A DNA stretch of 64,000 nucleotides from an uncultured Gammaproteobacteria bacterium (lineage in GTDB: Bacteria; Patescibacteriota; Patescibacteriia; Patescibacteriales; UBA12075): NCBI GenBank assembly GCA_964459725.1, contig CAYWNT010000001.1, forward strand, positions 155,529 to 219,528. Reading direction: 5' to 3'. The position numbers were made by a program, and so were the translations under genes. Positions 3,479-62,930 of this stretch are shown here, piece by piece. The notes under the pieces were generated by a model. It was not told the DNA's origin and ran no database searches. It saw only the letters and a list, made by a program, of their open reading frames with translations. Position 1 is the first letter of the stretch; each line of letters begins with the position of its first letter.

Positions 3479-4138
3479 ATGAGTAAAAACGTAATAATAA
3501 CAGGTGGCACAGGGATGGTTGGTTTACTAGTTTTAAAAGAGTGTTTAGAGAATGACAACATCTCAAGTGTTACCTCGCTAGTTCGAGAAAAATCAAATAT
3601 CACTCATCCAAAACTTAAGGAGGTGGTCATAGAAGATTTTTGTGATTATAGCAATCATGGTGATCTGTTTAGAAACAAGGACATAGCTTATTATTGTCTT
3701 GGAGTATACACTGGAGCAGTTCCAAGGGATGAGTTTCGAAAAATTACAGTTGATTTTACCATTGCTTTTGCTGACAAGCTTAGAGAGCAAAGCCCAAATG
3801 CAGGCTTTGTATTTCTAAGTGGAGCTGGAGCTGACAGGGCTGAAAAGAGTAGGATGATGTTTGCCAAAGACAAAGGGGCAGCTGAAAATTATTTATTAAA
3901 AAAGGATTTTAAAGCACTTCATATATTTCGACCAGGATATATTTATCCAGTTACACCTCGTAAGGAGCCAAATTTTTCCTATATATTATCAAGAAAATTA
4001 TATCCAATTTTAAAAGTATTTATTCCTGGTAGTGTAATTGAGTCAGTAGACTTGGCTCATGCTATGTTTTCGGTTGGAGTGAATGGAGGCAAGATGGATA
4101 CATATGAAAACAAAGATATTAGAAATTTAATTCAATAA
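3479..4138 (+). CDS. NAD(P)H-binding (atypical SDR / epimerase-like) protein
   Basis: N-terminal Rossmann motif ITGGTGMVG. Size and layout fit the NAD(P)-binding domain family. Confidence 0.7.
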   Translation: MSKNVIITGGTGMVGLLVLKECLENDNISSVTSLVREKSNITHPKLKEVVIEDFCDYSNHGDLFRNKDIAYYCLGVYTGAVPRDEFRKITVDFTIAFADKLREQSPNAGFVFLSGAGADRAEKSRMMFAKDKGAAENYLLKKDFKALHIFRPGYIYPVTPRKEPNFSYILSRKLYPILKVFIPGSVIESVDLAHAMFSVGVNGGKMDTYENKDIRNLIQ

Positions 4139-4800: not shown

Positions 4801-5487
4801 ATGGCATGTAACGCGTGTGAAAATAAGGATTGGGATGGAGATAGAGATGTTCCTGTAGGAGAGGAGCAATATGTTTGTTGGTGTTGCCAACAGCGTTGGT
4901 GGAGCTATAATACTCACTATAATCTTTGGACAACAGTGGATGATGATTTTACCTGGGATGTTTTAAGGCATGGTGTAGATATACCGATATCTATTGGTAA
5001 GCCAGCTTCTGTATTGCCTGGCTATGAAGACTATGCAGTTAAGCCCACACATAAAATTTGTGAAGAACGTTCTCCATATCCAAAGCTAGTTCTGATGGAT
5101 GGTCCGAGTGATATGCCAACAGCCGCAATACAGTGTGTGGGCGATTGGGAAAGGGGCAACATTTTTCAACATCAATTTTTATTTCCCTTGGGTGGTAGAT
5201 TGCCAGATGAAGATTGGATGGCCAAGGAAAAATTGGACACTTTTCATGTTCCCTTCGTTGGGACTGTGTCACATTGGCCATATGAAGACCGGCCAGAAGG
5301 ACTTTTTGAAGACGCAGGCGAAAAAGCATTTGCTCATTTAATTTCTGATCGGTTAAGAATAAACGGTAATCAAGCCTCATTCATCGTGCCTCTTGTATTT
5401 TTGGGTGATCCGAGTGTTGGAGTAATCACTGCTCGGCACTTTTTCGATGATTATATTCGAGAGGTAGCTGTAGAAAAATTCCAATAG
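4801..5487 (+). CDS. hypothetical Cys/Trp-rich protein (228 aa)
   Basis: AAGGAGG SD 6 nt upstream and its own terminator at 5507..5541. The N-terminus is CNAC...CWCC. No family recognised. Confidence 0.65.
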   Translation: MACNACENKDWDGDRDVPVGEEQYVCWCCQQRWWSYNTHYNLWTTVDDDFTWDVLRHGVDIPISIGKPASVLPGYEDYAVKPTHKICEERSPYPKLVLMDGPSDMPTAAIQCVGDWERGNIFQHQFLFPLGGRLPDEDWMAKEKLDTFHVPFVGTVSHWPYEDRPEGLFEDAGEKAFAHLISDRLRINGNQASFIVPLVFLGDPSVGVITARHFFDDYIREVAVEKFQ

Positions 5488-7709: not shown

Positions 7710-8396
7710 ATGGGAAGATTTAATCGAGGAGATAATTTTGGCGGAAGAAAAAGGTTTGACAATGACCGTGGTTCCAGAGGGGGAGGAAGGCCCTCAATGC
7801 ATCAGGCCGTTTGTGATGAATGTGGCAAGGACTGCGAGGTCCCCTTTAAACCAACTGGCGATAAACCGGTGTTTTGTAGCTATTGTTTTGATAAAAAAGA
7901 AACTTCCAATAGTAGTCGGGCCGAAAGAAGGATCGCTGCAAGACAAAATCGTGGAGATAGGCAAATGTTTAGGGCTGTTTGTGATAAATGTGGCAAGGAT
8001 TGCGAAGTTCCTTTTAAGCCGTCTAGTGATAAGCCAATATTTTGTAGTGAGTGTTTTGGAAAGGGTGAAAAAGGTGCTAACAGGAATAAAAATGTTGCTA
8101 GCTCCGATCAATATAGCAAACAGTTTGAAATATTGAATAATAAGATTGATAATATTTTAGAAATGTTATCATCTGAAACTGAAGTCAAAAAAGAAAAACC
8201 CATTGCTAAAGCAATCAAAAAAACAGTTGAGAAAAAAACTGTAGCCAAGAAAGCTGCAGCTCCGAAAAAGGCTGCGAAAAAAGTTGCTGCCAAGAAGAAA
8301 GAAGTCAAGAAGAAGGTTGCTCCGAAAAAAGTTGTGAAGAAAGCTGTTGCCAAGAAGAAAGTTGTGAAAAAGACCGCAACTAAGAAAAAGAAATAA
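7710..8396 (+). CDS. tandem CxxC-x17-CxxC zinc-ribbon protein with Lys/Ala-rich histone-H1-like tail
   Basis: Two copies of CDxCGKDCEVPFKPxxDKPxFCSxCF, with exactly 17 residues between the CxxC pairs. The C-terminal roughly 70 aa is AKKAAAPKKAAKKVAAKKK... The start is moved to ATG 7710; the track uses an upstream TTG at 7695. Confidence 0.75.
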   Translation: MGRFNRGDNFGGRKRFDNDRGSRGGGRPSMHQAVCDECGKDCEVPFKPTGDKPVFCSYCFDKKETSNSSRAERRIAARQNRGDRQMFRAVCDKCGKDCEVPFKPSSDKPIFCSECFGKGEKGANRNKNVASSDQYSKQFEILNNKIDNILEMLSSETEVKKEKPIAKAIKKTVEKKTVAKKAAAPKKAAKKVAAKKKEVKKKVAPKKVVKKAVAKKKVVKKTATKKKK

Positions 8397-15458: not shown

Positions 15459-15674
15459 ATCTTTATAATAACGGTATTTTCTATAATATCCAATAGGGCA
15501 GAGCGAATATCTTATATCAAAAACTTAATAAATTTAAATAAGTCGCTCTTTAAAACAATTTTAATTTAATAAAATTAGGTTAAATTAAAAGTAATAAGTT
15601 TACCCGAAGGGCTAAGGTTGTAGCAGATTAAAACAAATAACTCGGTAGATTTCCAATAATTAGGAGGTGATGAC

Positions 15675-15923
15675 ATGAAAGCTTCAACACCGCAGATCAG
15701 CGATTATTTCGTAGTAGATGGACAAAGAGGCGTTATTTTGTTTGGTAATAACAGGAAAGCGCTTGTTAAAAGGTTGAGAGAAAAAGAAAAAGATATTGAT
15801 ATTAGTTCTATGGTTGTTTTAGAAGGATCTTGGGCATTGGATCCAGAAAATTTGGTATCGAATTTTTCTTATGGCAGATTATTGAAAAAGTATCTAGAGG
15901 ATCATGATTTAATTCCGAATTAA
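15675..15923 (+). CDS. small protein, paralog family member A (82 aa)
   Basis: AGGAGGTG SD. Shares P-x-I-SDYFVVD...GV-LFG and G-LLKK-L-D--LIP with 16019, 16347 and 17999. Confidence 0.7.
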   Translation: MKASTPQISDYFVVDGQRGVILFGNNRKALVKRLREKEKDIDISSMVVLEGSWALDPENLVSNFSYGRLLKKYLEDHDLIPN

Positions 15924-16018
15924 ATTAATGACTTATTTTTGTAATAACAGTGACTAAGAAATGTAAATCAATCTAGGAAAATAACTTTACTGATTTCTAA
16001 AATTCAGAGGAGGATGAT

Positions 16019-16261
16019 ATGGAAAATTTATCACCAAAAACTAGTGATTATTTCGCAGTACATGAAACGAGGGGAGTTGTTTTATTCGATTGCGATCAGG
16101 GAGAGCTTGTTAAGGAAGTAGAAGAAAAAGAAGATGATGTTGGTAGAATAGCAATTATAAAAGGGGAGTCAATTCTTAAGCCAAATATTTATTCGTCAGA
16201 ACTGTCTTATCATAAATTATTAAAACAGTTTATGCAAGATCAAGAGTTAATACCAAGATAG
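16019..16261 (+). CDS. small protein, paralog family member B (80 aa)
   Basis: GAGGAGG SD and the same conserved N- and C-terminal blocks. Confidence 0.7.
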   Translation: MENLSPKTSDYFAVHETRGVVLFDCDQGELVKEVEEKEDDVGRIAIIKGESILKPNIYSSELSYHKLLKQFMQDQELIPR

Positions 16262-16346
16262 GCAATTCATGATTCATTAAATAGAGCGATAACGAATTCA
16301 ACCAAGTTGCTCGTTGTAAGCCTGAAAAAGGGGAGGTGATTATGAT

Positions 16347-16622
16347 ATGGATTCTTTGTTGCCGCAAATTGATGATTATTTCGTGGTAGATGAGGAAGAT
16401 GGTGTTCTAATGTTTGGGCATAGCAGTAAAATGCTTCTTCTGGAGCTGGAAAAAAATTTTAATAGAAAAGAAGGATCTGATAGTATAATTATTATGAGAG
16501 GATCGAATGCATTGGACCCGAAAAGTATAATGTCAACCTTACCTCAGGGTAAATTATTAAAAAAGTTCTTGCAAGACTATGGGATAATTTCAAATTATCC
16601 AAAAATTTGCTTCAAGCATTGA
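16347..16622 (+). CDS. small protein, paralog family member C (91 aa)
   Basis: GGGGAGGTG SD and the same conserved blocks. A terminator follows at 16622..16655. Confidence 0.7.
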   Translation: MDSLLPQIDDYFVVDEEDGVLMFGHSSKMLLLELEKNFNRKEGSDSIIIMRGSNALDPKSIMSTLPQGKLLKKFLQDYGIISNYPKICFKH

Positions 16623-16655
16623 TGCCTCTACGAAAGTAGGGGCATTGTTTTATTT
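16622..16655 (+). terminator. rho-independent terminator
   Basis: ATGCCTCTAC / GTAGGGGCAT stem, GAAA loop, T-rich tail. Confidence 0.75.
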
Positions 16656-16855
16656 ATTATTTTAAATTAGTTTGATTGACAATAGATTGGAAAAATTATA
16701 AAATTCAATTAAATAAGGAAAAATTTTAAAAACCCCATGCTCATAAAAAGCGGGGTTTTGTTTGTTTAATTTTATCATTTTGAATGTTAGGTATTTTAAT
16801 TAAAAATTAACTAAATTATGGTATTATATATTAATAAAAAAATTAATAGAATTAT

Positions 16856-17734
16856 ATGAAAAAAATTATTTCAATCTTAACAATCGTCGGTTTGTTTATT
16901 TTTTCAGCAACAGTTATTGTCGCTGGAAATGATAATTTGCTACCGGCAACTTTAAAAACAAACGGAGTTGAAAAAACTCTTTCTCTTCCTGTGAGCGCGA
17001 TAGAGAATTCACCTGTGATTTATTTGGGCGAGGCTCTGGATCCACAATCCGGAGAAATGGTTCAGGGTTATGCAATTGTCCATTACGCAAAACCTGACGG
17101 CAAGGGAAATGGAAATGGCAAAGGAAACGGGGGAGGCGGAAAGGGAGAAACCAGCAGCTGTTATGAACATATGGCCAAAGGCGCTAAGTGGAAAACAGTT
17201 GAGCCGTGGATTGTGGGTGGTGCTAGCAGTAGCTTTCCTTTTACCCCCGACATTGTGCTTGATAGAATTGCGGAAGATATCTCAAAATGGGAAGATGCAG
17301 CCGATGGTAATGTGGGCGATCAGGGCATAGTTGATATTTTTGGTGACGGATCAATTACATTTGATATTTTGGAAGCAGACACGGTTGCGCCGGACGGAGC
17401 GAATGAGGTTTACTTCGGATCCATTGAGGATGAGGGGGCTATTGGTGTTACTATTGTTTGGGGAATATTTGGAGGTCCACCAAGGGACAGAGTGTTAGTA
17501 GAGTGGGATCAGGTGTATGACAGAGTCGATTATGATTGGTCACTTACCGGTGAAGCAGGCATGATGGATTTTGAGAGTATCGCCACACATGAGCTGGGAC
17601 ATAGTGCCGGCATGGGAGATCTCTACGAGTCAGCATGCGCCGAGGAAACAATGTATGGATATGCAGGTTTTGGTGAAACCAATAAGAGGGATTTGTACAT
17701 CGGAGATATTACAGGAATTAACAAGCTATACTAG
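16856..17734 (+). CDS. secreted metzincin-type zinc metalloprotease (matrixin/snapalysin-like)
   Basis: Signal peptide and a Gly/Asn/Lys-rich linker. The motif HELGHSAGMGD fits HExxHxxGxxD, followed by a Met-containing turn. Confidence 0.8.
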   Translation: MKKIISILTIVGLFIFSATVIVAGNDNLLPATLKTNGVEKTLSLPVSAIENSPVIYLGEALDPQSGEMVQGYAIVHYAKPDGKGNGNGKGNGGGGKGETSSCYEHMAKGAKWKTVEPWIVGGASSSFPFTPDIVLDRIAEDISKWEDAADGNVGDQGIVDIFGDGSITFDILEADTVAPDGANEVYFGSIEDEGAIGVTIVWGIFGGPPRDRVLVEWDQVYDRVDYDWSLTGEAGMMDFESIATHELGHSAGMGDLYESACAEETMYGYAGFGETNKRDLYIGDITGINKLY

Positions 17735-17745
17735 TTAGAAGAATG

Positions 17746-17778
17746 AAAAACTCATCTCTTGTAATGGGTGAGTTTTTT
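17746..17778 (+). terminator. rho-independent terminator
   Basis: AAAAACTCA / TGAGTTTTT stem followed by a T-run. Confidence 0.7.
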
Positions 17779-17998
17779 GTTTTTCTGATTGTTGCCATAT
17801 AAGTTTAATTTGAAATTAATTAATATTGATTTTTCTATTAAACTATGTTAATGTAGTTTTACTTTTACTAATTTTAGAAAGATGGTTCTTTTACAAATTA
17901 AGTTTGGATGGATGAGTGGTAAGAATTAAATTATATTGGGTTTTTTATTTTAAGCATCAATTTTATTTATGCTAACGAAAAAAAGAAGGGGGGGCAAG

Positions 17999-18242
17999 AT
18001 GAATACTTCATCTCCTAAAATTACTGATATATTTATTGTAGACCACAAGGATGGAGTATTAATTTTTGGTGATAATGAAAAGAAGCTTATTGAAGAATTA
18101 AAGAAAACGAAAAATTGATGTAGACGGTAGCGTAATTCTTTCCGCAGATTCTGTTATAAATCAGGAAACACCGGAAGCAAGATCAATTCATGGCAAGTTG
18201 TTAAAAAAGTTCTTACAAGATCATGGTTTGATTCCGGGTTGA
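17999..18242 (+). pseudogene. frameshifted fourth copy of the small-protein family
   Basis: ATG 17999 gives MNTSSPKITDIFIVDHKDGVLIFGDNEKKLIEELKKTKN, then TGA at 18116. The +1 frame from 18117 continues as DVDGSVILSADSVINQETPEARSIHGKLLKKFLQDHGLIPG, with a stop at 18240..18242. Deleting one T in AAAAATTGATG restores a full-length paralog. Confidence 0.65.
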
Positions 18243-18283
18243 TAATGGGTGCAAAATTAAACAAGAGATTATGGAGGTATTAA

Positions 18284-19158: not shown

Positions 19159-20643
19159 ATGGGAAAGCCGATCAGCGTTAAATTGGCACCAAGAGGCAAT
19201 GTGAATCCAATTAGATCAGCCTGTTTTGCGGCGTTGCTTTGCTATATGGCGAGAATTCCCAAGTGGGGGAAGCTGATAGATTGGTATAAAAAACTTTTTG
19301 GAACTGGGCACCATACAACATTTATGCACGCAGCTTCATATTTCACTTTTGTGATTGAGGGAATAAGCGTAGGGGATATTACTTTTGGTTTTCATCTGAC
19401 TTCGCCTTTTTACAACTCGAGTCAACGAAGTGGACGTTATTGTTCAGCAATGTTTGTTCGATATTTTAAAAAGGTAAGGAATACCTTAAAGATGTATTTG
19501 ATGAAACTATTCCCAGGCTATGAACCTGAGCTTGAAGCCGGAACGACACCGGATGCTTTTCCTGAAAAAAAGTTAGCAGAAATGGAGGAGTATATTAGAG
19601 CGTATTGGCCAGAGGTTGATGAAAAAGAATTATCTTCAATAATGGATTATGTCCGATTCGGTATCGGGGTGTTTCAGTCAAATATTATGGATGCCACTAA
19701 AGTGGCTACGGATTTTGCTAAAGAGGAAAGACCCTTTGTAAAAGCTGATTATTTGGCGGATACTGCTCCAAAGTTTGCCCAAGAGCAGCTTAGGAATTTT
19801 ATTCCTGTATTAGCTCCTACTGGGATGGTTCATACCGTAAATTTGATTACACTGGTTGCTCTTTATGAGTCTGCCTGGACTCCCGCTATGCGTCATGTGA
19901 CAGAGGAAATGGTGAGATTAGTTTTGGAAAAATATCCAGAATTGGCATCGATGTTTGACGAGAAAAACCGTAGAACAGATGATTGGGCTATGGAATTTGA
20001 CGGTGATGATAATTATTTAGCGAAAGCGCCTTGCGCTGTAGTTATAGATGTACGTAATGCTGATAGTCTCGTCTCTCCAAAATATTATGATCGTCATCCG
20101 GTAGATAAGTTGCATTTTAGACCAGAACTTATGGATAACGCGGTAGGACATATAATTTCAAGCGTGTCTTTGTCGGTGGCAACCATGGGTCAGGACCAGC
20201 GACATAGAACAATTCGTCGTGGTACGCCAATGTTTACAGGAGGATTTTATTTACCTCCAGTTGTCGCAGCTCTAGGTTTAGACAAGGAAGCAATGAGGAT
20301 GATTACAGAATGGCGTGCAATAGCCACTAAAGTTCCAGCATCCCTGGCTATGATATTAGCGCCTTATGGTGCTATGGCATCTTACGAAAAATCCGGATCA
20401 TTCCTTGCGGTTGATCATGAGCAGGGGAAGAGAACTTGTTGGTGTGCTCAAGAGGAGATATATTGGCTGGGAGTTCTGATTCGGAAAAAAATTGAAAACA
20501 AACTAGGCAAAGATCATTCGTTATTGCAGATTTTTGAACCACCTTGCTACAGAACGGGCAAGTGCGGTGAAGGTGATAGATATTGCGGTCGTGATTTGCG
20601 AGTAAGAGAAAAGGGAGACTATTTTCCGAGAAGAAAAATTTAA
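19159..20643 (+). CDS. ThyX-like (FAD-dependent thymidylate synthase family) protein, long and divergent
   Basis: GTGHHTTFMHAASYFTFVIEGISVGDITFGFHLTSPFYNSSQRSGRY parallels the ThyX core GHxSxxEHxxFTFxIxGxSR...RHR...SxxSxRY. The RHR is missing there; a QRHRT occurs about 250 aa later. Confidence 0.5.
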   Translation: MGKPISVKLAPRGNVNPIRSACFAALLCYMARIPKWGKLIDWYKKLFGTGHHTTFMHAASYFTFVIEGISVGDITFGFHLTSPFYNSSQRSGRYCSAMFVRYFKKVRNTLKMYLMKLFPGYEPELEAGTTPDAFPEKKLAEMEEYIRAYWPEVDEKELSSIMDYVRFGIGVFQSNIMDATKVATDFAKEERPFVKADYLADTAPKFAQEQLRNFIPVLAPTGMVHTVNLITLVALYESAWTPAMRHVTEEMVRLVLEKYPELASMFDEKNRRTDDWAMEFDGDDNYLAKAPCAVVIDVRNADSLVSPKYYDRHPVDKLHFRPELMDNAVGHIISSVSLSVATMGQDQRHRTIRRGTPMFTGGFYLPPVVAALGLDKEAMRMITEWRAIATKVPASLAMILAPYGAMASYEKSGSFLAVDHEQGKRTCWCAQEEIYWLGVLIRKKIENKLGKDHSLLQIFEPPCYRTGKCGEGDRYCGRDLRVREKGDYFPRRKI

Positions 20644-25850: not shown

Positions 25851-28800
25851 ATGAATAATCAGAAAAATCAGCAGAAAAGGAGCTCTTTTCCGGACATGGA
25901 GAAGGAGGTTTTGGCTTTTTGGCAAAAGAATAATATTTTTGAAAAATCAGTTGAAAACCCACCCCACCCTGACGGGCATCCCTCCAAGGAGGGGACTCCG
26001 GTTGAGGATTATGTTTTTTATGATGGGCCTCCTTTTGCCACCGGACTACCTCATTATGGTCATATAGTCGGAACAATAATGAAAGATGTAGTGCCAAGAT
26101 ATTGGACAATGCAAGGCAAAAGAGTTGAGCGCAAATGGGGATGGGATTGTCATGGTCTTCCTATTGAGAATATTGTTGAGAAAGAGCTTGGATCAAAGAA
26201 GAAAAAAGACATTGAAGAGGGTGTAGGTGTTGCGAAGTTCAACGAGCTTTGTAGATCAAAGGTTTTAAGCTATGTTGATGACTGGGAAAAAGTAATAAAA
26301 AAAATTGGTCGATGGGCGGATATGAAGAATGCTTACAAAACAATGGACATTGAATACATGGAATCTGTCTGGTGGGTGTTTAAGGAACTCTGGGATAAGA
26401 ACTTGATTTACAAAGATCATAGATCTATGCATGTTTGTCCTAGATGTGAGACTACCTTGTCACAGTCAGAGGTGACAGAAGGGTATGCTGATATCAAGGA
26501 TTTGTCAGCGATTGCCAAGTTTGAGTTGGAGGATGATGGCCCTTCGGCAGGCTCAGGGCAAGCTAAAACTTTCGTTTTAGCCTGGACTACTACACCTTGG
26601 ACATTGATTGGAAATGTTGCCTTGGCGGTTGGTAAAGATATAGATTATGTAAAAGCTGGAATCAAGAATCAGGAATCAGGAGTTACAGATAATTATATAA
26701 TTGCTAAAGAGTTGGCAGAAAAAGTTTTTAAGGATAGGGAGTTTGATGTTGTTGAAGAATTTAAAGGAGAGAAATTGATTGAAAAAAAATATAAACCCCT
26801 ATTTGATTATTATTCATCTGATAAAAATCTGGAAAATAGAGAAAATGGATGGCAGATTTATGGAGCTGATTTTGTAACCACTGAGGAGGGCACAGGAGTA
26901 GTTCATATTGCTCCGGCTTTTGGTGAGGATGATATGAGATTGGGTCATGAAAAGAATTTACCTTTTGTGCAGCATTTAACTATAGATGGTAATTTCAAAG
27001 AGGAAGTAGCTGACTTTAAGGGACTCAATGTGAAGCCAAAGGATAATCACATGTCGACTGATATTGAGATTATCAAATACTTAGCTCATAATGGGTTACT
27101 TTTTCACAAGGAAAAATACGAGCATAGCTACCCGCATTGTTGGCGCTGTGATACCCCGCTTATCAACTATGCAACGAGTTCTTGGTTTGTAAATATTACA
27201 AAAATAAAAGATAGAGCCCTAGAGACTGCTAAAGATGTGAATTGGTCACCAGAACATATCAAGAGAGGTCGTTTTGGTAAGTGGCTGGAGGGTGCTCGTG
27301 ATTGGTCAATTTCTCGTCAGCGTTTTTGGGCTAGCGTAATGCCTATCTGGAAATGCGATAAATGTGCTGATACTAAAGTTTTTGGATCAGTTGAGGAGTT
27401 GAGTGAGCATTTTGGAAATCCAAATAAATTATATCTAGTAAGACACGGGGAGGCGGAACAAAATGTTGCGCATATTCTAAATTCTGACTTAAATAACAAT
27501 CATTATCATTTAACAGAAAATGGGCGAGAGCAAGTTGAAAAAACAGCTAAAGAACTAAGGGATAAAAAAGTTGATTATATATTTTGTTCTCCATTTTTAA
27601 GAACAAAGGAGACGGCAGAAATCATATCAAAAGATCTAGGTGTAGAAATAATTTTTGATGATAGATTAAGTGAATTTGGTGTTGGTGATTTTGAGGGGAA
27701 AAATCAAGAAGATTTTATGAGGGTTTTTTCTAATTGGCCGGAAGAGAATATAGATTTAAGAAAAAAACATGGTGTAGAACTTGAAAAAGAGGCAGAAGAA
27801 AGATTTTCTAGTTTCTTGAATGAATTAAATGAAAAACACAAGAACAAGAATATAGTTATTGTTTCTCATGGAGATCCTCTTCAGTTTATGTATAGCCTGT
27901 TACAGGGAGTCGATAGGATAAAAACTTATAGTAGTGAGTATTACTCAGAAAAGGGAAAATCTAAGTTTTCTTATTCAAGGCTTGTCGATCTCCATAAACA
28001 TATAGTTGATGAAATTAAATTTGGGTGTGATAAGTGCGATGGCGAGATGGTTAGAGTTCCTGATGTGTTGGATACTTGGTTTGATTCTGGATCAATGCCA
28101 TATGCGCAGATGCATTATCCTTTTGAAAATAAAGAAAAGTTTGATAATAATTTCCCGGCAGAATTTATAGCTGAAGGATCTGATCAGACCAGGGCCTGGT
28201 TTTACTATATGCACATGATTGCTAATGGAATTAAGGATAAAAATGCTTATAAAAATGTGATTGTAAATGGTATAGTGCTCGCTGAAGATGGAAAAAAGAT
28301 GAGCAAAAAGCTTCAGAATTATCCGGATCCAATGGAGTTACTTGATAAATACGGGGCTGATGCACTTCGTTATTATCTCCTTACATCTCCAGTGATGTTG
28401 GCTGATAATTTGAATTTTTCTGAAGACGGAGTAAAGGAGTCTCTTAGGAAGGTAAATATGATTCTTTGGAATGTGGTGAGATTTTATGATTTATTTGAAG
28501 ATAAGTCGAAAGTTTATAAAACCGAAAGACCAAATAGTGAGAATATCTTAGATCAATGGATACTGGCAAGACTAGATGAGTTGATTGTTGAGGTGGGAGA
28601 GAATATGGAGAAATATAATTTGCCAAAAGCAACAAGGCCTATAGTTGAGTTTATTGATGATTTATCTACTTGGTATATCAGAAGAAGTCGTGACCGATTT
28701 AAATCAGAACATGAGAAGGACAAAGAAAGTGCTTTGGCGACAACCGGGCATCTGTTAGTCGAGCTTTCAAAGGTGATGGCACCATTTACACCATTTATTG

Positions 28801-29402
28801 CGGAGCAAGTATGGCAAAAAATAATTGGAAATGATTTTAAAGATGAGAATAAATCAGTTCATTTGGAAAGTTTTCCTAAGGAAGAAAAAGGACATGAAGT
28901 ATCCGAGGTGAAAATAATTGAAAGAATGAGTATGGCCCGAAAGATTGTTGAGATGGGTCTGGCAAAACGTGATGAAGTTGGAATTAAAGTAAGACAACCT
29001 CTTAACGAATTACGAATTACAAATTTCGAATTAAGGGATGAATATGTTGACTTGATTAAGGATGAAATGAATGTGAAATCCGTTGTTAGTGAAAAAGGCG
29101 AGGGTGATATGTCGGTTGAGCTGGATACTGAGATTACACCTGAACTAAAATTGGAAGGGGTGAAAAGAGAATTGGTTAGATATATTAACGCCCAGAGAAA
29201 AAAACAGGATTTGTCTATTCGTGATTTTGTGGTTATTGAATGGCAAGGAGAAAAAGAAATCAAAAAGGCGTTTGATAAATTTAGTGAAGAAATAAAGAAA
29301 GAGACTTTATCTCTGGATATTGTGGAGAAAGAAAAGGTAGATGATGGAGTGAGTGTAAAAATAGAAGGAGAAGAATTAATTTTAAAAATTAATAAAAAAT
29401 AA
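25851..29402 (+). CDS. ileS: isoleucine--tRNA ligase (type 2) with internal domain insertion
   Basis: PHYGH (HIGH), KMSKK (KMSKS), the WTTTPWTL editing-domain block, and DWSISRQRFW. 1183 aa. Confidence 0.95.
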   Translation: MNNQKNQQKRSSFPDMEKEVLAFWQKNNIFEKSVENPPHPDGHPSKEGTPVEDYVFYDGPPFATGLPHYGHIVGTIMKDVVPRYWTMQGKRVERKWGWDCHGLPIENIVEKELGSKKKKDIEEGVGVAKFNELCRSKVLSYVDDWEKVIKKIGRWADMKNAYKTMDIEYMESVWWVFKELWDKNLIYKDHRSMHVCPRCETTLSQSEVTEGYADIKDLSAIAKFELEDDGPSAGSGQAKTFVLAWTTTPWTLIGNVALAVGKDIDYVKAGIKNQESGVTDNYIIAKELAEKVFKDREFDVVEEFKGEKLIEKKYKPLFDYYSSDKNLENRENGWQIYGADFVTTEEGTGVVHIAPAFGEDDMRLGHEKNLPFVQHLTIDGNFKEEVADFKGLNVKPKDNHMSTDIEIIKYLAHNGLLFHKEKYEHSYPHCWRCDTPLINYATSSWFVNITKIKDRALETAKDVNWSPEHIKRGRFGKWLEGARDWSISRQRFWASVMPIWKCDKCADTKVFGSVEELSEHFGNPNKLYLVRHGEAEQNVAHILNSDLNNNHYHLTENGREQVEKTAKELRDKKVDYIFCSPFLRTKETAEIISKDLGVEIIFDDRLSEFGVGDFEGKNQEDFMRVFSNWPEENIDLRKKHGVELEKEAEERFSSFLNELNEKHKNKNIVIVSHGDPLQFMYSLLQGVDRIKTYSSEYYSEKGKSKFSYSRLVDLHKHIVDEIKFGCDKCDGEMVRVPDVLDTWFDSGSMPYAQMHYPFENKEKFDNNFPAEFIAEGSDQTRAWFYYMHMIANGIKDKNAYKNVIVNGIVLAEDGKKMSKKLQNYPDPMELLDKYGADALRYYLLTSPVMLADNLNFSEDGVKESLRKVNMILWNVVRFYDLFEDKSKVYKTERPNSENILDQWILARLDELIVEVGENMEKYNLPKATRPIVEFIDDLSTWYIRRSRDRFKSEHEKDKESALATTGHLLVELSKVMAPFTPFIAEQVWQKIIGNDFKDENKSVHLESFPKEEKGHEVSEVKIIERMSMARKIVEMGLAKRDEVGIKVRQPLNELRITNFELRDEYVDLIKDEMNVKSVVSEKGEGDMSVELDTEITPELKLEGVKRELVRYINAQRKKQDLSIRDFVVIEWQGEKEIKKAFDKFSEEIKKETLSLDIVEKEKVDDGVSVKIEGEELILKINKK
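25957..25995 (+). repeat. GC-rich bipartite hairpin element, copy 1 (in frame in ileS)
   Basis: ACCCACCCCACCCTGACGGGCATCCCTCCAAGGAGGGGA. Related copies lie at 46922..46960 and 59451..59495. Confidence 0.85.
27426..27986 (+). other. histidine-phosphatase (PGAM-type) domain inserted within IleRS
   Basis: LYLVRHGEAEQN...LTENGREQ...FCSPFLRTKETAEII...IVIVSHGDPLQ lies between ...SVEELSEHFGNPN and DLHKHIVDEIKFGCDKCDG. Confidence 0.8.
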
Positions 29403-36185: not shown

Positions 36186-36216
36186 TCAATTACAAATTAC
36201 AAATTAAGAATTATCA

Positions 36217-41987: not shown

Positions 41988-43349
41988 ATGACTACAGAAA
42001 AGAAGCAAAATAAAATAGAACTACTAGCTCCAGCAGGCAATCTGGAGAAGATGAAAACAGCTTTGGCCTTTGGGGCGGATGCTGTGTATGTTGGTATTCC
42101 TGATTTTTCTCTGCGAGTGCGGATTAATGATTTTGATATAGAGAAAATAAAAGAAGCGACAAAATATTGCCATGAGAAGGGTAAAAAAATATATGTAACA
42201 ATAAATATATTTGCTCATAATCGTCACATTGAAAAACTTCCAGCATACATTGAGGAGTTGAAAAAAATTGGAGTGGACGCTCTTATTATTTCTGACCCTG
42301 GTGTGATTGATGTTGTTAAAGAAGTTTGGCCAGAGGCGGCAATCCACCTCTCAACTCAGGCTAATGCCACGAATTGGAGGAGTGTTAAATTTTGGCATAG
42401 CCAGGGCGTTGAGAGAGTAATACTTGGCAGAGAAACAACTCTTGAAGAGATAAAAGAGATTCATGAGCGTGTTCCTGAAGTAGAGCTTGAAACTTTTGTG
42501 CATGGAGCAATGTGCATGGCCTATTCTGGTAGGTGTTTCTTGTCTAAGCATTTTGTAGATAGGTCTGGTAATCTGGGGGATTGTGTTCAGCCGTGTAGAT
42601 GGCGGTATAATTCTAGAAAACAGACGACAGACGACAGACGACAGGATGAGAGATTTTTTATAACTGAAGAAAGTCGTCCTGATCAGCCTTTGGAGATTGT
42701 TGAGGAGGAGCATGGGTCTTATATTTTGAATTCTAAAGATCTTAATTTACTTAAACATGTAAAAGAATTGGTTGATGCTGGTGTGGTTAGTTTGAAAATT
42801 GAGGGGCGTGCTAAGAGTGTTTATTATCAGGCAGTTGTTAATGGAATATACTCACACATAACATCCTCCTATTGCACGGCGGACAGGCATAACTCACAAC
42901 CCATAACACAAAAAGAGATTAATTATTTATATGAGGAGCTTGAAAACAAGATTACGCATAGGGGGTATACTACTGGGTTTATTCTTGGGGAGAGGGCTGA
43001 TCAGGATGTTGAAAATACACATAAGGTTATTGATTGGGAGTTTTGTGGGGTCGTCGTTGACGACGAGTCAAAAGTCCAGCCCCGTCATTCGACAGGGCAA
43101 GAGTCTATAAAGTCCAAAGTGCTTAATAATCAGATTTTAGTGAAGGTTCATAATGTTATTAAGCGAGGGGATGAGGTGGAGATTGTTGTGCCAAAATATG
43201 ATATAATAAAGATGAAGGTTGATAAGATGTATGAATTAAATGGAGAAGAAATAGATGAGGCGCATGGAGGGCAGGAGAAGATGGTTTTGCTTGAAGTAGA
43301 CGTTGATAGGGAAGTTCCTGAATATTCTGTTTTGAGACGCAAATTGTAA
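41988..43349 (+). CDS. peptidase U32 family protein
   Basis: LLAPAGN, ETFVHGAMCMAYSGRCFLS, LKIEGRAKS. Confidence 0.85.
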   Translation: MTTEKKQNKIELLAPAGNLEKMKTALAFGADAVYVGIPDFSLRVRINDFDIEKIKEATKYCHEKGKKIYVTINIFAHNRHIEKLPAYIEELKKIGVDALIISDPGVIDVVKEVWPEAAIHLSTQANATNWRSVKFWHSQGVERVILGRETTLEEIKEIHERVPEVELETFVHGAMCMAYSGRCFLSKHFVDRSGNLGDCVQPCRWRYNSRKQTTDDRRQDERFFITEESRPDQPLEIVEEEHGSYILNSKDLNLLKHVKELVDAGVVSLKIEGRAKSVYYQAVVNGIYSHITSSYCTADRHNSQPITQKEINYLYEELENKITHRGYTTGFILGERADQDVENTHKVIDWEFCGVVVDDESKVQPRHSTGQESIKSKVLNNQILVKVHNVIKRGDEVEIVVPKYDIIKMKVDKMYELNGEEIDEAHGGQEKMVLLEVDVDREVPEYSVLRRKL

Positions 43350-43355
43350 TAAATT

Positions 43356-43447
43356 CACATAACATGTAACACATAACATGCAACAAAATTCAAAAAGCGA
43401 AGCTTTTTGATGGTCATTGTTATGAGTTATGTGTTATGAGTTATGTG
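43356..43447. repeat. long composite inverted repeat: CACATAAC-type 14-mer arms around a CAAAAAGC-GAA-GCTTTTTG hairpin
   Basis: Left arm 43356..43384, core 43391..43409, right arm 43415..43447. The arms are imperfect reverse complements. Confidence 0.85.
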
Positions 43448-43451
43448 TAAA

Positions 43452-46347: not shown

Positions 46348-47466
46348 ATGTTTATGAAATTAATCGAATTAAACAAAGAAAAATTAGATAATTTTTTAGC
46401 TAATCAGGACAAATCTCAGTTTTTGCAGTCTTTTGAGTGGGGAGAATTTCAGGAAAAGACTGGTTTGGAAGTTTTTAGATATGGCGTGGAAGAAAATGAA
46501 GAATTAGTGGCAGTTGTTTCTTTGATCAAGAAAAATCTTGGAATTGGGAAGAGTTATTTTTATGCGCCGAGAGGAGTCGTGTTTAGTCATAAAGTCATAA
46601 AGTCAAAAGTCGCCCGCCTGCCGGACGGGCAGGAAAGTGTTTATAATTTTTTATTTAATGAGATAGAAAAAATTGCTAAAAAGGAAAATTGTATATTTCT
46701 CCGTTTTGAACCGCACAGAAAGTCAAAAGTCGCCCGCCTGCCGGACGGGCAGGAAAGTCGAAAGTCGAAAGTTATTAAAACTATCGATTTGCAGCCGGCG
46801 AAAACTTTGATGTTGGATTTGGGAAAATCAGAGGAGGAACTTTTGCAAGACATGCATCAGAAGACTCGGTATAATATTCGACTTGCGGAGAAAAAGGGCG
46901 TTGAGGTGGTAGAGGTTGATTACCCACCCCGGCCTGATGGCCACCCCTCCAGAGAGGGGAATTTATTTGAGGAGTTTTGGAAATTGATGAGTCAGACTGG
47001 AGGTCGTGATGGATTTCGGCTACATTCTAAAAATTATTACAAAAAAATGCTAGATGAGTCGAAAGTCTATAAAGTCGAAAGTCGAAAGTCTGAAGTTGAT
47101 TTAAGTATAAAATTGTTTCTGGCGAAGTATCAGGGGGAGGTGATTGCTGGAAATATTATTTCTTTTTTTGGAGATACTGTGACCTATATGCATGGTGCAT
47201 CATCTAATGAGTATAGAAATGTGATGGCTCCGTATATTCTTCAATGGGAAGTGATAAAGGCGGCAAAAGAAAAGGGGTATAAATATTATGACTTTTTTGG
47301 GATTGATAAAGATAAGTGGCCGGGAGTGACTAGATTCAAAGAAGGATTTTGCGTGAAAAATCTGGAAAAATGCCAAGTGACTTATCCAGGTACATTCGAT
47401 TTGGTGTTTAGTAAAGTGTGGTATAATGCATATAACATCCTTCGAAGAATTCGAAGAGTGTTATAA
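46348..47466 (+). CDS. FemAB-family peptidoglycan interpeptide-bridge aminoacyltransferase
   Basis: FLQSFEWGEFQ, YAPRG, TRYNIRLAEKKG, YMHGASSNEYRNVMAPYILQWE, YDFFGI. It contains several in-frame repeat insertions. Confidence 0.8.
   Translation: MFMKLIELNKEKLDNFLANQDKSQFLQSFEWGEFQEKTGLEVFRYGVEENEELVAVVSLIKKNLGIGKSYFYAPRGVVFSHKVIKSKVARLPDGQESVYNFLFNEIEKIAKKENCIFLRFEPHRKSKVARLPDGQESRKSKVIKTIDLQPAKTLMLDLGKSEEELLQDMHQKTRYNIRLAEKKGVEVVEVDYPPRPDGHPSREGNLFEEFWKLMSQTGGRDGFRLHSKNYYKKMLDESKVYKVESRKSEVDLSIKLFLAKYQGEVIAGNIISFFGDTVTYMHGASSNEYRNVMAPYILQWEVIKAAKEKGYKYYDFFGIDKDKWPGVTRFKEGFCVKNLEKCQVTYPGTFDLVFSKVWYNAYNILRRIRRVL
46600..46638 (+). repeat. 39-nt AAAGTC + GC-hairpin element, copy 1
   Basis: AAGTCAAAAGTCGCCCGCCTGCCGGACGGGCAGGAAAGT, identical to 46720..46758. 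Confidence 0.95.
46720..46758 (+). repeat. 39-nt AAAGTC + GC-hairpin element, copy 2
   Basis: Exact copy, offset by exactly 120 nt (40 codons) from copy 1. Confidence 0.95.
46922..46960 (+). repeat. GC-rich bipartite hairpin element, copy 2 (in frame in the FemAB-family gene)
   Basis: ACCCACCCCGGCCTGATGGCCACCCCTCCAGAGAGGGGA. Confidence 0.85.
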
Positions 47467-47491: not shown

Positions 47492-48880
47492 ATGGATAAA
47501 ATATTACTTATAATAAAACGTTTAATTCCAAAAAAGATATTTAAATTACTTCAACCCATATATCATTTCATCATGGCTTGGTTTGCCGCTCTAGTTTATG
47601 GGTTTCCTAGTGAGAAGCTGGTTGTTATTGGAGTTACTGGAACTACTGGTAAAACTACCAGTGTTTTTTTGATTGCCAAGATGCTGGAAGGTCTGGGGTA
47701 TAAAGTGGGCTATACTTCTACAGCAATGTTTAATGATGGAAAAAAAGAATGGATGAATGATAAGAAGATGACAATGGTGGGAAGGTTCTTCACTCAAAAG
47801 ATGATTCGAAGTATGTATAGAAACAAATGCCAATTTGCTATTGTGGAAACCACTTCAGAGGGGATAGTGCAGTTCAGGCATCGATTTATAAATTATGACA
47901 CTGTAGTTTTTACCGGGCTATATCCAGAGCATATTGAGTCTCATGGGAGCTTTGAGAATTACAAAGAAGCAAAGGGGAGACTGTTCTCGCATCTTAAAAA
48001 ATGTAAATACAAATTCACGGATAACGAGAAAAGAGTGATAGCGGCAGACAAGGGCATGAAGAAGATAGACCTGGAAAGGGTTAAGAAGACAATTGTTGCC
48101 AATGGAGATGATGAGCATAAGGATTATTTCCTTAGCTTCCCGGCTGACAAAAAAATTATATTTACAAAAAATAGTGAGAGCAGTGGTGGAGAGACTGAGT
48201 GGAAGATTGTCCGTTACGGGGACATAGTTCCAGGAAAGAACGGAGTAAGTTTTGTGGTGGCAGGGAATAAGATTGATCTGAAGTTGCTGGGAGGGTTCAA
48301 TGCTGATAATGCCATGACGGCAGTTGGGGTTGGTGTCTCTCTGGAAGAAAAATATGACAGAATTAGAGAGGGACTGGAAAGTATAAAAGGAACACCAGGC
48401 AGACTAGAGAGAATTGACGAAGGGCAAGACTTCACAGTGATAGTTGATTATGCTTTTGAGCCTGGTGCGGTAAAAAAGCTTTATGAAACAATAAATGCGA
48501 TTCCACATAATAACATAATCCATGTTCTAGGCTCAACCGGAGGAGGAAGGGATGTGGCTAGGCGACCTGTGTTAGGAGAGATTGCAGGAGAAAAGGCCAC
48601 TTATGTGATAGTTGCCAATGAAGACCCATATGATGATGATCCTCAGACAATTATTGACCAGGTTGCGATTGGAGCAGAAAGAAAGGGTAAAAAGCAGGAT
48701 AAAGATTTATTCAAAATCATGGATCGTCGTTTAGCCATCAAAAAGGCCTTGGAATTAGCTAAAAGCGATGATGTGGTGATAATAACAGGAAAAGGCAATG
48801 AACAGGCAATTTGCATAGCCAATGGGGAGAAAATACCTTGGGATGATAGATTAGTAACTAGAGAACTATTAAAAAAATAA
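47492..48880 (+). CDS. murE: Mur ligase family, MurE-like UDP-MurNAc-tripeptide synthetase
   Basis: GVTGTTGKTT P-loop, ETTSEG, and a C-terminal Mur ligase domain with GSTGGGRD. Confidence 0.8.
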   Translation: MDKILLIIKRLIPKKIFKLLQPIYHFIMAWFAALVYGFPSEKLVVIGVTGTTGKTTSVFLIAKMLEGLGYKVGYTSTAMFNDGKKEWMNDKKMTMVGRFFTQKMIRSMYRNKCQFAIVETTSEGIVQFRHRFINYDTVVFTGLYPEHIESHGSFENYKEAKGRLFSHLKKCKYKFTDNEKRVIAADKGMKKIDLERVKKTIVANGDDEHKDYFLSFPADKKIIFTKNSESSGGETEWKIVRYGDIVPGKNGVSFVVAGNKIDLKLLGGFNADNAMTAVGVGVSLEEKYDRIREGLESIKGTPGRLERIDEGQDFTVIVDYAFEPGAVKKLYETINAIPHNNIIHVLGSTGGGRDVARRPVLGEIAGEKATYVIVANEDPYDDDPQTIIDQVAIGAERKGKKQDKDLFKIMDRRLAIKKALELAKSDDVVIITGKGNEQAICIANGEKIPWDDRLVTRELLKK

Positions 48881-52785: not shown

Positions 52786-52878
52786 TAATTACTAATTTCT
52801 AACATAAATCCTAATTTCTAATTACTAATTTCTAAAATATTTAGAAATTGAAATTTAGAAACTTAGAAATTTAATTAC
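52786..52878. repeat. rpoB-rpoC spacer built from 3 direct TAATTTCTA and 3 inverted TAGAAAYT units
   Basis: Direct copies start at 52793, 52812 and 52826. Inverted copies start at 52842, 52856 and 52864. The central 10-bp hairpin is at 52827..52849. Confidence 0.9.
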
Positions 52879-58211: not shown

Positions 58212-58268
58212 AATAAAATTTTTATATAAACTTTCAACTTTACGGACTTTACAGACTTTCGACTATTT

Positions 58269-59450: not shown

Positions 59451-59495
59451 ACCCACCCCGCCAGGCTTCGCCTGCCCGCCCCTCCGAGGAGGGGA
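59451..59495. repeat. GC-rich bipartite hairpin element, copy 3 (intergenic)
   Basis: ACCCACCCCGCCAGGCTTCGCCTGCCCGCCCCTCCGAGGAGGGGA. Its ACCCACCCC also pairs with GGGGTGGGT at 59408..59416. Confidence 0.85.
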
Positions 59496-59510
59496 CTTTC
59501 TTGGTGGTTC

Positions 59511-61570: not shown

Positions 61571-61618
61571 AAGTCAGAAAACTTTTGACTTTATGGACTT
61601 TATAGACTTTGGACTGTC
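61571..61618. repeat. GACTTT (reverse complement AAAGTC) repeat tract with leading hairpin
   Basis: AAGTCAGAAAACTTTTGACTT hairpin, then GACTTTATG, GACTTTATA, GACTTTG, GACTGTC. Confidence 0.85.
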
Positions 61619-62183: not shown

Positions 62184-62252
62184 AATTACGAATTATTAAT
62201 TACGGAATATAAAATTAATATTTTTTTGTATCGTAATTCGTAATTATTAATT
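62184..62252. repeat. AATTACG heptamer inverted repeat
   Basis: AATTACGAATTATTAATTACG (62184..62204) faces CGTAATTCGTAATTATTAATT (62232..62252). Confidence 0.85.
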
Positions 62253-62930
62253 TTTAATTGTTTTATTGATTATTTCTTCAAAGGCGGAAAGTGGTAAACT
62301 TCCCTTTACTTTATGTCCGTTAATGAACCAAGTTGGCGTCCCTGTGATGCCAAGTTCTTGTCCGTCAGAAAAATCTTTCTGTATTTTGCTTAAATATTTT
62401 TTACTATCAAAGCATTTAGTAAATCTCTCAACGTCAGTTCCGACCTGCATAGCCAGATTTATAATTTCTTTTCTTTCTGCCACTCCTTGGTTTATAAATA
62501 ACTTATCGTGCATTGGCCAGAAAAGACCTTGCTCACCAGCGCACCTGCCGGCCATTGCCAGATCTCCTGACTGCTCTGTAATTATTGGGTAATCTCGGAA
62601 TATTATTTTTACATTTTTTTTATATTTACGGCTTAATTCTCTGATTACGGGAAATGAATTTTTGCAGTAAGGACAAGAGAAGTCGCTAAATTCAACTATG
62701 GTAATTTTAGGGTTCGTAGCTCCGATTGAGAAATTGTCACCCGGGCCTGTAATTATTTTAGATATTTCTGTGCCTCCTGAGGTTGGGTTAGGGACCAATT
62801 GGCCCTGATTGCTTTTTTTAATAACATTTAATACCAAAAATACAAATGCTATCAAAAATATTAGAGCAATCGTAAAAAGGGCAATAAACAAAATGCCCCA
62901 TTTTTTTTTATACCAACGCTTGTTGTCCAT
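62247..62930 (-). CDS. DsbA-family thioredoxin-fold protein with N-terminal TM anchor
   Basis: TM helix, and the FSCPYCK active site. Confidence 0.8.
   Translation of the reverse strand: MDNKRWYKKKWGILFIALFTIALIFLIAFVFLVLNVIKKSNQGQLVPNPTSGGTEISKIITGPGDNFSIGATNPKITIVEFSDFSCPYCKNSFPVIRELSRKYKKNVKIIFRDYPIITEQSGDLAMAGRCAGEQGLFWPMHDKLFINQGVAERKEIINLAMQVGTDVERFTKCFDSKKYLSKIQKDFSDGQELGITGTPTWFINGHKVKGSLPLSAFEEIINKTIKN

Follow-up and report, generated by a model that had tools for sequence, protein, structure and literature searches.

A translated insert of heptamer repeats and a dispersed mini-hairpin in a U32-family gene of a Patescibacteria genome

The stretch of DNA analysed in this work (the window; 64,000 nucleotides of contig CAYWNT010000001.1, assembly GCA_964459725.1) is low in GC (31-40% in 2-kb windows) and carries a gene for a TrhP-like protein of the U32 family, within which 57 nt (43065-43121) form an in-frame insertion and not conserved U32 sequence. 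This 57-nt patch is most likely tiny repeat DNA tolerated in a floppy loop rather than a part of the enzyme. It reads E360-V378 of the protein, ESKVQPRHSTGQESIKSKV (ESKV-QPRHSTGQ-ESIKSKV), and consists of an AAAGTC-type array split by a GC-rich hairpin. The sequence strings, coordinates and in-frame position in the U32 gene had been reported correctly in the original prediction for this locus, which was made from the sequence alone. The gene and the parts of the insert are given below together with their counterparts in L001, a relative in which the locus is syntenic (HisKA-RR-U32-RuvA-FemAB) and the U32 protein has 73% amino-acid identity.

41988-43349, + strand: gene for the U32-family TrhP-like protein, 453 aa, an open reading frame (ORF) encoding a TIM-barrel domain and a C-terminal beta-barrel
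43050-43064, + strand: GTCGTCGTTGACGAC, with a 6-bp palindrome (GTCGTC/GACGAC); native coding sequence, end of the beta-strand WEFCGVVVDD
43065-43076, + strand: GAGTCAAAAGTC (GAGTC AAAAGTC), 5' half of the AAAGTC-type array; encodes ESKV and aligns to AAGTTGAAAGTT in L001
43077-43101, + strand: CAGCCCCGTCATTCGACAGGGCAAG, the core region as named in the original prediction; coordinates confirmed
43078-43098, + strand: 21-nt insertion, one A plus the 20-nt hairpin GCCCCGTCATTCGACAGGGC (43079-43098); these 21 nt are absent from L001
43099-43121, + strand: 3' half of the AAAGTC-type array (AAGAGTC TATAAAGTC CAAAGTG); encodes (Q)ESIKSKV and aligns to GAAAGTCCATAAAGTTAAAAGTC in L001
43102-43121, + strand: AGTCTATAAAGTCCAAAGTG, array 3' of the insertion; coordinates confirmed

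The U32 protein was matched by Pfam Peptidase_U32 (PF01136) over residues 81-336 and by U32_C (PF16325) over residues 380-450. The NCBIfam TrhP profile NF011996 aligned over residues 8-451 with 404 bits, under the curated cut-off of 534, and by this profile the protein is classed as TrhP-like and not as an equivalog. A search of solved structures with the protein sequence gave no match; Foldseek with the AlphaFold (AF2) model, which has a mean predicted local distance difference test score (pLDDT) of 80, matched the U32 structures 5d88 and 4he5/4he6. The nearest relatives were all from Patescibacteria (Falkowbacteria, Parcubacteria and others). Residues 362-378 were modelled as coil with pLDDT <50; in the C-terminal barrel they link strand E350-357 to strand E382-387, and the U32_C profile match resumed only from residue 380. 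In an alignment of 31 homologs the loop between the strands WEFCG(V/Q)V and I-VKVHN was gapped and unalignable in nearly all, and its length across 114 homologs was 10-55 aa (median 19; 30 in the window protein). The proposal that the segment is not conserved U32 sequence would have been refuted by gap-free alignment to distant homologs; instead, nearly all of 30 aligned homologs had a gap there. The insert is probably irrelevant to the function of the enzyme.

The original prediction had also counted the inverted GACGA units of GTCGTCGTTGACGAC as part of the element. The palindrome is indeed present, and its membership of the insert was rejected: Val and Asp codons are mutual reverse complements and the strand GVVVDD is conserved, so that GTCGTC..GACGAC arises from native coding sequence. 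VV(V/I)DD is kept in the closest homologs, the peptide lies in modelled strand E350-357, and the fold z-score of this segment was only -2.55.

At the U32 site L001 reads GAC AAG TTG AAA GTT GGA AAG TCC ATA AAG TTA AAA GTC; it keeps the AAAGT array and is shorter by exactly 21 nt. In the window the additional 21 nt and the neighbouring bases encode QPRHSTGQ, with a boundary that is uncertain by one base. In the hairpin an 8-bp stem closes a 4-nt loop. One position of the stem is mismatched, C-A on the + strand and G-T on the - strand, on which the hairpin is more stable; on both strands it was more stable than all 200 shuffled sequences (z = -4.3 on +, -6.4 on -). Even when up to 3 mismatches are tolerated, the window holds just one copy of the 20-mer. 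The coding inserts found in the genes described here add 21, 21, 21, 24 and 36 nt, all multiples of three and free of stops, and are therefore translated rather than removed. Excision at the RNA level, in the manner of archaeal introns with bulge-helix-bulge (BHB) motifs, was considered on account of the tRNA T-loop and rRNA contexts described below and was rejected for the coding copies on the same ground.

The insert is one of three repeat-bearing variable sites in the U32 gene (42620-42644, 42853-42911 and 43065-43121), and AAAGTC arrays occur at six sites of the window, namely the U32 insert and five others, with four of the six lying within ORFs and translated. The further sites are as follows.

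42620-42644, + strand: third U32 repeat site, ACAGACG x3.6 in tandem without a core; encodes QTTDDRRQ; Tandem Repeats Finder (TRF) score 50, 100% matches
42853-42911, + strand: second U32 composite, CATAAC-type heptamers around the 24-nt core TCCTCCTATTGCACGGCGGACAGG (42864-42887); encodes SHIT-SSYCTADR-HNSQPITQ
46585-46638, + strand: FemAB site 1, AAAGTC array with the 21-nt core GCCCGCCTGCCGGACGGGCAG (46612-46632); the core is absent from L001
46716-46772, + strand: FemAB site 2, the GCCCGCCTGCCGGACGGGCAG core (46732-46752) in an AAAGTC array; 43 nt are 98% identical to site 1
47057-47095, + strand: FemAB site 4, AAAGTC array without a core
58225-58263, - strand: intergenic AAAGTC array without a core
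61580-61614, - strand: intergenic, immediately downstream of the POR gene; AAAGTC array without a core

Neither of the other two U32 sites is stable between relatives: 42620-42644 is not present in L001 or L033, and eight codons of 42853-42911 are missing from L001, L031, L032 and L033. Folding of the 24-nt core at 42864-42887 was not significant in the shuffle test. The heptamers that flank this core belong to the same family as those of the intergenic region after the U32 gene (43355-43450), where CACATAAC-type heptamers and their reverse complement (GTTATGA x3.9) surround an AT-rich 9-bp hairpin, the whole making up a single composite hairpin ~95 nt long that may be a terminator.

The repeat pattern is more than chance would give. 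Three exact copies of GTCAAAAGTC are present in the 64 kb against 0.13 expected from base composition, each of them followed directly by a GC core. With one mismatch allowed there were 12 matches against 5.2 expected, a number reached in 2 of 100 shuffles. The FemAB gene (46348-47466) has two copies of AAAGTCAAAAGTC-GCCCGCCTGCCGGACGGGCAG-GAAAGT (46596-46638 and 46716-46758; 43 nt, 98% identical) encoding KSKV-ARLPDGQ-ES in the same phase as in U32. The parallel between the FemAB and U32 peptides and their common phase were thus borne out, all three reading (G/A)AG TCA AAA GTC. At FemAB site 1 L001 reads ...TCAAAAGTT|GAAAGCG..., with the array kept and exactly the 21-nt core missing. The FemAB orthologs of L031 and L095 have neither array nor core at this site, and the same is true of the U32 linker of L031.

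AAAGTC arrays share one orientation relative to the local genes. Among U32 homologs, AAAGT-type peptides (KKLKVKS and similar) were found in the linker of ~13 of 114, with periodicity at the DNA level in L097, and other linkers hold peptides of other heptamer families (IKNYELRITN, THNTQH, NANAAN, (GEFRMSN)n). IKNYELRITN, the translation of the AATTACG unit, fills the linker of ~11 homologs. A single strict detector found three arrays of period 7 in the window and none or one at each other period from 4 to 12, and missed the U32 and FemAB arrays, in which the spacing is 7-9 nt and not strictly 7; TRF found period-7 arrays at ~15 sites. The CATAAC and ACAGACG arrays, too, are part of ORFs and translated. 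Heptamer arrays of additional families (AATTACG/AATTACA, TAATTTC, ATTTAGAA) are found between genes at 29005-29033, 36188-36206, 52786-52873 and 62184-62274. The AAAGTC array is separable from the core because L001 and the window sites at 47057, 58225 and 61580 carry arrays without one, and from these comparisons the array is judged to be older than, or independent of, the core.

The core in FemAB shares 13 of 21 positions with that in U32 in a hand alignment and is, from its sequence and distribution, taken to be a separate 21-mer family. The exact FemAB 21-mer GCCCGCCTGCCGGACGGGCAG was found in 13 stretches of the viral collection, with at least 10 copies in ~80 kb of low-GC, prophage-like contigs of one Bacillota metagenome-assembled genome (MAG; L034-L046, IMG 2820306284). 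In these contigs, for which megablast and tblastn against phages gave no match, the 21-mer is read in frame within the tape-measure protein and further structural proteins, in either orientation (ARLPDGQ, LPVRQAG, PPAGRAG); some copies are nested or in tandem, most are without heptamer flanks, and none has AAAGTC flanks. An exact micro-repeat is thus common to two phyla. FemAB-type core variants also occur inside other heptamer arrays of the U32 linker, in L095 (CACCAAAA units) and L096 (GCGCA(TA)AC units). All four small cores of the window sit in arrays, as do those in three independent U32 linkers with three different heptamers and those at L033:7895 and L063:3893; cores therefore tend to sit within arrays, and seemingly any heptamer can pair with any core. 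The modular design of heptamer flank plus GC core that had been proposed accordingly recurs, twice in FemAB, at U32 42853-42911, and with other heptamers and cores in L095 and L096. The further proposal of one element family with related cores was not supported: arrays exist without cores (L001, 47057-47095, 58225-58263, 61580-61614), the U32 20-mer is never flanked by AAAGTC elsewhere (see below), and the FemAB core belongs to another family, which is distributed in its own way.

A third repeat family was observed, ACCCACCCC...(GC hairpin)...CCCCTCCnnnGGAGGGGA, with two adjacent hairpins (z = -3.2) and no heptamer flanks, at 25957-25998, 46922-46959 and 59451-59497. It is in frame in FemAB (YPPRPDGHPSREGN, missing in three orthologs) and near the N-terminus of a class I tRNA synthetase, and its third copy is intergenic, downstream of the POR_N gene.

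Exact copies of the U32 20-mer GCCCCGTCATTCGACAGGGC were then sought outside the window. In 185,579 GTDB species genomes 26 stretches were found, against ~1 expected by our own calculation (596 Gb x 2 / 4^20), and a metagenome scan gave 48 further stretches; a viral scan gave zero matches. Genome records titled Nealson-, Sacchari-, Buchanan-, Magasanik-, Berkel-, Moran- or Staskawiczbacteria, Paceibacterales or Parcubacteria account for 14 of the 26. Most of the genome and metagenome matches fall in diverse Patescibacteria; the ~10 genome matches outside this group have A/T runs on either side and resemble terminator hairpins that arose by chance. The 20-mer occurs in both orientations with flanks that vary between contexts, which include the 5' variable region of 23S rRNA (L005, L020), the position directly upstream of the 16S 5' end, the inside of a T-box leader, tRNA-like T-loops split as GGTTC|..|GAATCC beside real tRNA genes, terminator loops, and coding sequence both in sense (SPRHSTG) and in antisense (ALSNDGA, Mur ligase). 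It is often followed directly by a second 20-nt hairpin of inverse type whose stem is compensated (GCCATATCGAATGATATGGC, ACCCTATCGAATGATAGGGT, GCCCCATCGAATGATGGGGC), as in L013, L023, L055/L068 and L091; no such partner was seen in the window. From these paired hairpins with compensated stems a family GCCnnnTC-ATTC-GAnnnGGC was therefore defined, which was found with identical or compensated sequence in many Patescibacteria. The 20-mer is probably mobile repeat DNA.

Next to genuine tRNA genes, at L006:7532-7620, L013:~3990-4080 and L017:~4840-4910, lie tRNA 3'-half look-alikes in which the T-loop GGTTC|GAATCC is broken by the 20-mer and a second hairpin of 17-20 nt; the copy in L013 resembles a second tRNA-Ser(GGA). 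TC stands directly 5' of the 20-mer in ~9 of ~25 distinct contexts (L005-L094, counted by eye: GGTTC|, xxTTC|, AATTC|, GAGTC|, AGGTC|) and the sequence at the empty sites of L001 is GTT|G(G)AAAG, which together hint at an insertion target (G/T)T(C)|GAA.

The main rival reading, which we consider unlikely, is a composite element in which [AAAGTC]n-core-[AAAGTC]n moves as a whole, the core-less arrays being remnants left by slippage deletion of the hairpin. In its favour, the 43 nt common to FemAB sites 1 and 2 extend over 16 nt of the 5' and 6 nt of the 3' flank; L001 has another repeat, of AATTTCCC type, at FemAB site 2, where the AAAGTC array of the window looks newly arrived together with its core; all AAAGTY tandem pairs have one orientation relative to local genes; and palindromes between direct repeats are classic deletion substrates. 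However, the AAAGTC flank holds two unrelated cores, FemAB-like cores use other heptamers (L095 CACCAAAA, L096 GCGCAAC), none of the 74 other stretches carrying the exact U32 20-mer has AAAGTC flanks, the FemAB 21-mer lacks them in the Bacillota contigs, and core-less AAAGT arrays are widespread among U32 homologs.

Mur-ligase orthologs (P0129-P0248, 120 proteins) were retrieved independently of the exact 20-mer scan. Most have a short native loop (..NQVAETAGPKAKK..). One clade has ALSNDG/ALSNDGA (8 of 120 proteins) along with decayed versions (ALSHDGA, ALSADGA, ALSDDGA, ALLHNGA, ALSDDEA and others; ~16 of 120), and other clades have heptamer-type peptides at that site, e.g. SQIRNQKSEILNYK and ISNSKFPISNFHE. 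The 20-mer at this site is read as an old insertion, inherited and drifting, rather than as a conserved signal, and because the copy is inherited and decays by point mutation the 20-mer is regarded as neutral rather than functional. The hot spot is the loop after EDPYDExP, and in the clade with the 20-mer this 20-mer is preceded by a 10-bp palindrome encoding PLSIxKEIES; the local Mur-ligase ortholog of the window (47492-48880) has no insert. A role resembling that of DNA uptake sequences or dif sites was rejected on copy number and variety of contexts.

That the hairpin is instead a functional nucleic-acid signal selected in the U32 mRNA, be it a site for RNA-protein binding or processing, a stabiliser of the mRNA or a site on DNA, is improbable. 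The hairpin is strong, most of its contexts are structured, transcribed RNAs, and perfect 20-mers stand at matching positions of T-box leaders, 16S leaders and the Mur-ligase gene while the flanks differ by ~15-25%. The perfect copies at orthologous sites were nevertheless rejected as a sign of function, since the scan returned exact copies only and the independently retrieved Mur-ligase copies decay freely. Moreover, the U32 copy is unique among 120 homologs and absent from the nearest relatives, both orientations are found, a C-A mismatch interrupts the stem on the sense strand of U32, and no Rfam family was matched (over the whole window Rfam gave nothing at gathering thresholds, and only a chance match to mir-944 on the downstream inverted heptamer hairpin).

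Selection on the peptide, with the loop ESKVQPRHSTGQESIKSKV serving interaction, localisation or regulation of the U32 enzyme, would be consistent with an intact frame in an otherwise conserved gene and with an exposed Lys/Ser-rich loop, and is very improbable: the peptide is confined to the window protein among the 120 homologs, the same 20-mer DNA is translated elsewhere in other frames or from the other strand (SPRHSTG, ALSNDGA, APSFDR-type), loops of 10-55 aa across homologs are of unrelated sequence, and pLDDT there is <50. Scarcely credible is a purely local origin, by which slippage during replication lengthened a native low-complexity linker and template switching formed the hairpin on the spot; the site is hypervariable and prone to slippage, and many of the second hairpins beside the 20-mer are unique, site-specific palindromes, but local events cannot yield the same 20 letters, stem mismatch included, in 74 further stretches, the genome scan having an expectation of ~1, nor two identical FemAB 21-mers that recur in a Bacillota MAG. 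An assembly or sequencing artefact, conceivable in a metagenome-derived genome, can practically be dismissed, as three assemblies deposited separately (the window, ENA L003 and JGI L004) agree exactly in the U32 gene sequence, the insert is in frame and stop-free, and the 20-mer recurs in many independent projects as well as in a complete chromosome of Nealsonbacteria.

The structural and evolutionary reading that we favour, and hold to be reasonably probable, is that of a mini-palindrome resembling repetitive extragenic palindromes (REPs) or small dispersed repeats (SDRs) that lies within a heptamer microsatellite in a permissive U32 loop; it builds on the observed anatomy, the exact 21-nt presence or absence, the dispersal and the decay. 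The proposed course of events starts from the loop WEFCGVVV/ILVKVH, which is a hot spot for tandem repeats of 7-9 nt across Patescibacteria (AAAGTC-type here), and from the discrete 21-nt piece with the dispersed hairpin GCCCCGTCATTCGACAGGGC that is seen within that array. The hairpin would be a non-autonomous mini-palindrome of the REP/SDR kind, copied by a trans-acting activity encoded outside the window, and its favoured targets would be slippage-prone arrays and hairpin loops, which expose single strands. Events that survive in genes would be those that add a multiple of three bases, avoid the one stop-containing frame and fall in tolerant loops. Once fixed, the insert would be read through as a disordered, Lys/Ser-rich surface loop without function, inherited vertically and decaying by point mutation. 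The mode of mobilisation proposed for the hairpin is held with much less confidence than the structural part.

Several observations weigh against this reading. No transposase, reverse transcriptase or integrase was matched by Pfam in the 30 ORFs of the window, and tblastn with approximate queries for IS200 TnpA and the E. coli REP-associated tyrosine transposase (RAYT), a weak test, gave no match in 712 kb. Copy number is low (one in 64 kb and at most one exact match per genome record), unlike that of classical REPs, and no target-site duplication or terminal tag was evident at the insertion. Across low-GC loci totalling 448 kb, flank repeats scored at least 4 at 4 of 148 GC hairpins (2.7%) and at 0.24% of control positions, but the enrichment of cores in arrays outside the window rests on few cases, and two of these four hairpins are the window's own. 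L001 could have lost its cores by slippage between flanking direct repeats instead of the window lineage having gained them, and both types of repeat might just accumulate independently at shared permissive loops.

A more far-reaching proposal, possible though doubtful, is that the cores belong to an undescribed class of 'nano-transposons' of ~20 nt, that is, non-coding hairpins that spread between deeply diverged lineages (Patescibacteria, some Bacillota and phages) by a trans-acting activity on single-strand DNA and prefer 7-nt arrays and the loops of structured RNAs (tRNA T-loop TTC|GAA, 23S, T-box and 16S leaders). The heptamer arrays may then be footprints, in the form of 7-nt duplications, of repeated insertion and excision, and such elements would be a major source of length variation in the proteins and rRNAs of Patescibacteria. 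Literature searches turned up no account of elements of this kind in Patescibacteria or the candidate phyla radiation (CPR).

The locus apparently exemplifies an undescribed, widespread system of micro-repeats that shapes Patescibacteria genes. It gives a concrete source for some of the unexplained insertions in the proteins and rRNAs of these bacteria, which occur despite very small genomes: interchangeable arrays of 7 nt and hairpins of 20-21 nt come to lie in frame in permissive loops and give homologs odd peptides such as KSKV, IKNYELRITN, ARLPDGQ and PRHSTG. Recognising these repeats would help annotation and alignment, as they inflate apparent divergence and make spurious low-complexity regions. 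The identity of the 20-mer across classes and the sharing of the 21-mer with a Bacillota prophage imply horizontal spread of DNA far below the size thought to be needed for mobility.

Other features of the window were recorded in passing. A 1183-aa class I aminoacyl-tRNA synthetase (25851-29402, + strand; tRNA-synt_1 and Anticodon_1) has a complete histidine-phosphatase domain (His_Phos_1, residues 527-688) within its catalytic domain. Three to four direct repeats ~340 nt apart at 15670-18246 (families D1 and D2, 62-74% identity) point to small paralogous ORFs arranged in tandem. In a protein with two treble-clef zinc-finger (zf_Tbcl_2) repeats, 95 nt are duplicated internally at 7796-8058 (77% identity). 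At 19159-20643 a ThyX-like ORF of 494 aa has a Thy1 match over residues 17-261 that is stretched by insertions, and a long C-terminal half without a domain match.

Among known systems, miniature inverted-repeat transposable elements (MITEs) resemble the U32 core in being short, non-coding, dispersed and presumably mobilised in trans; the core differs in being an order of magnitude smaller, in lacking terminal inverted repeats beyond the hairpin, and in an empty site in L001 that is shorter by exactly 21 nt and shows no target duplication except for one ambiguous base. Heptamer arrays are known from cyanobacteria (short tandemly repeated repetitive sequences, STRR), from Xanthomonas and Nostoc (GGGNATC; PMC4692102) and from Beggiatoaceae, Cyanobacteria and Bacteroidetes (TAACTGA; PMC4679880), where they are mainly intergenic and have been proposed to be regulatory or to form G-quadruplexes (PMC4692102, PMC4679880). 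The arrays of the window share with these the dispersal of two to six or more copies of a 7-nt unit, one orientation to genes, a patchy distribution and the lack of a known generating mechanism. They differ in the coexistence of several units (AAAGTC, CATAAC, AATTACG, ACAGACG), in a spacing of 7-9 nt, and in that many are translated inside genes and interrupted by GC hairpins.

Rickettsia palindromic elements (RPEs), ~105-146 bp in length (Ogata et al. 2000, cited in PMC3184786), are likewise palindromic selfish DNA that lies in frame in the protein and RNA genes of a small-genome bacterium and is translated and tolerated at permissive sites. They are five times larger than the U32 core (21 nt; the composite is 57 nt) and are without tandem heptamer flanks. 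REPs comprise GTAG- and CGTC-tagged families of GC-rich imperfect palindromes of 20-40 bp, often arranged as head-to-head dimers and occasionally intragenic, and the CGTC families have an 8-bp stem and a 4-nt loop with no associated transposase (Di Nocera et al. 2013, PMC3733652). Classical REPs are mostly extragenic and number tens to hundreds per genome. REPs are the nearest known elements in form: the U32 core is also a GC-rich imperfect palindrome with an 8-bp stem and a 4-nt loop and is in some cases intragenic, and the inverse-type partner that directly follows it in other genomes recalls REP dimers. Unlike REPs, the 20-mer is without a conserved unpaired GTAG or CGTC tag (CGTC occurs only inside the stem), is low in copy number per genome where this is visible, lies inside heptamer arrays, and is found in Patescibacteria, which are not among the phyla listed in PMC3733652; a RAYT was not found among the 30 ORFs of the window. 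The element was not filed as a REP because the terminal tag is absent and the copy number, as far as it could be seen, is low.

In size and inferred behaviour the closest likeness is to the cyanobacterial SDRs, which Elhai and colleagues reportedly described in 2008 from Nostoc/Anabaena as eight families of hairpin-forming dispersed repeats of 21-27 nt, with high copy number, presence or absence between related genomes and no known transposase. According to PMC5861425, SDRs are reported only in Nostocaceae, and the highly iterated palindrome HIP1 is named as the insertion site of SDR5. The U32 core belongs to another phylum, has other sequences and is low in copy number here, and the likeness is to the description of SDRs. 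With a 21-nt, hairpin-forming, dispersed core that appears as a 21-nt indel against L001 and lies inside another short repeat, the U32 element is nearest to the SDRs in size and in inferred behaviour.

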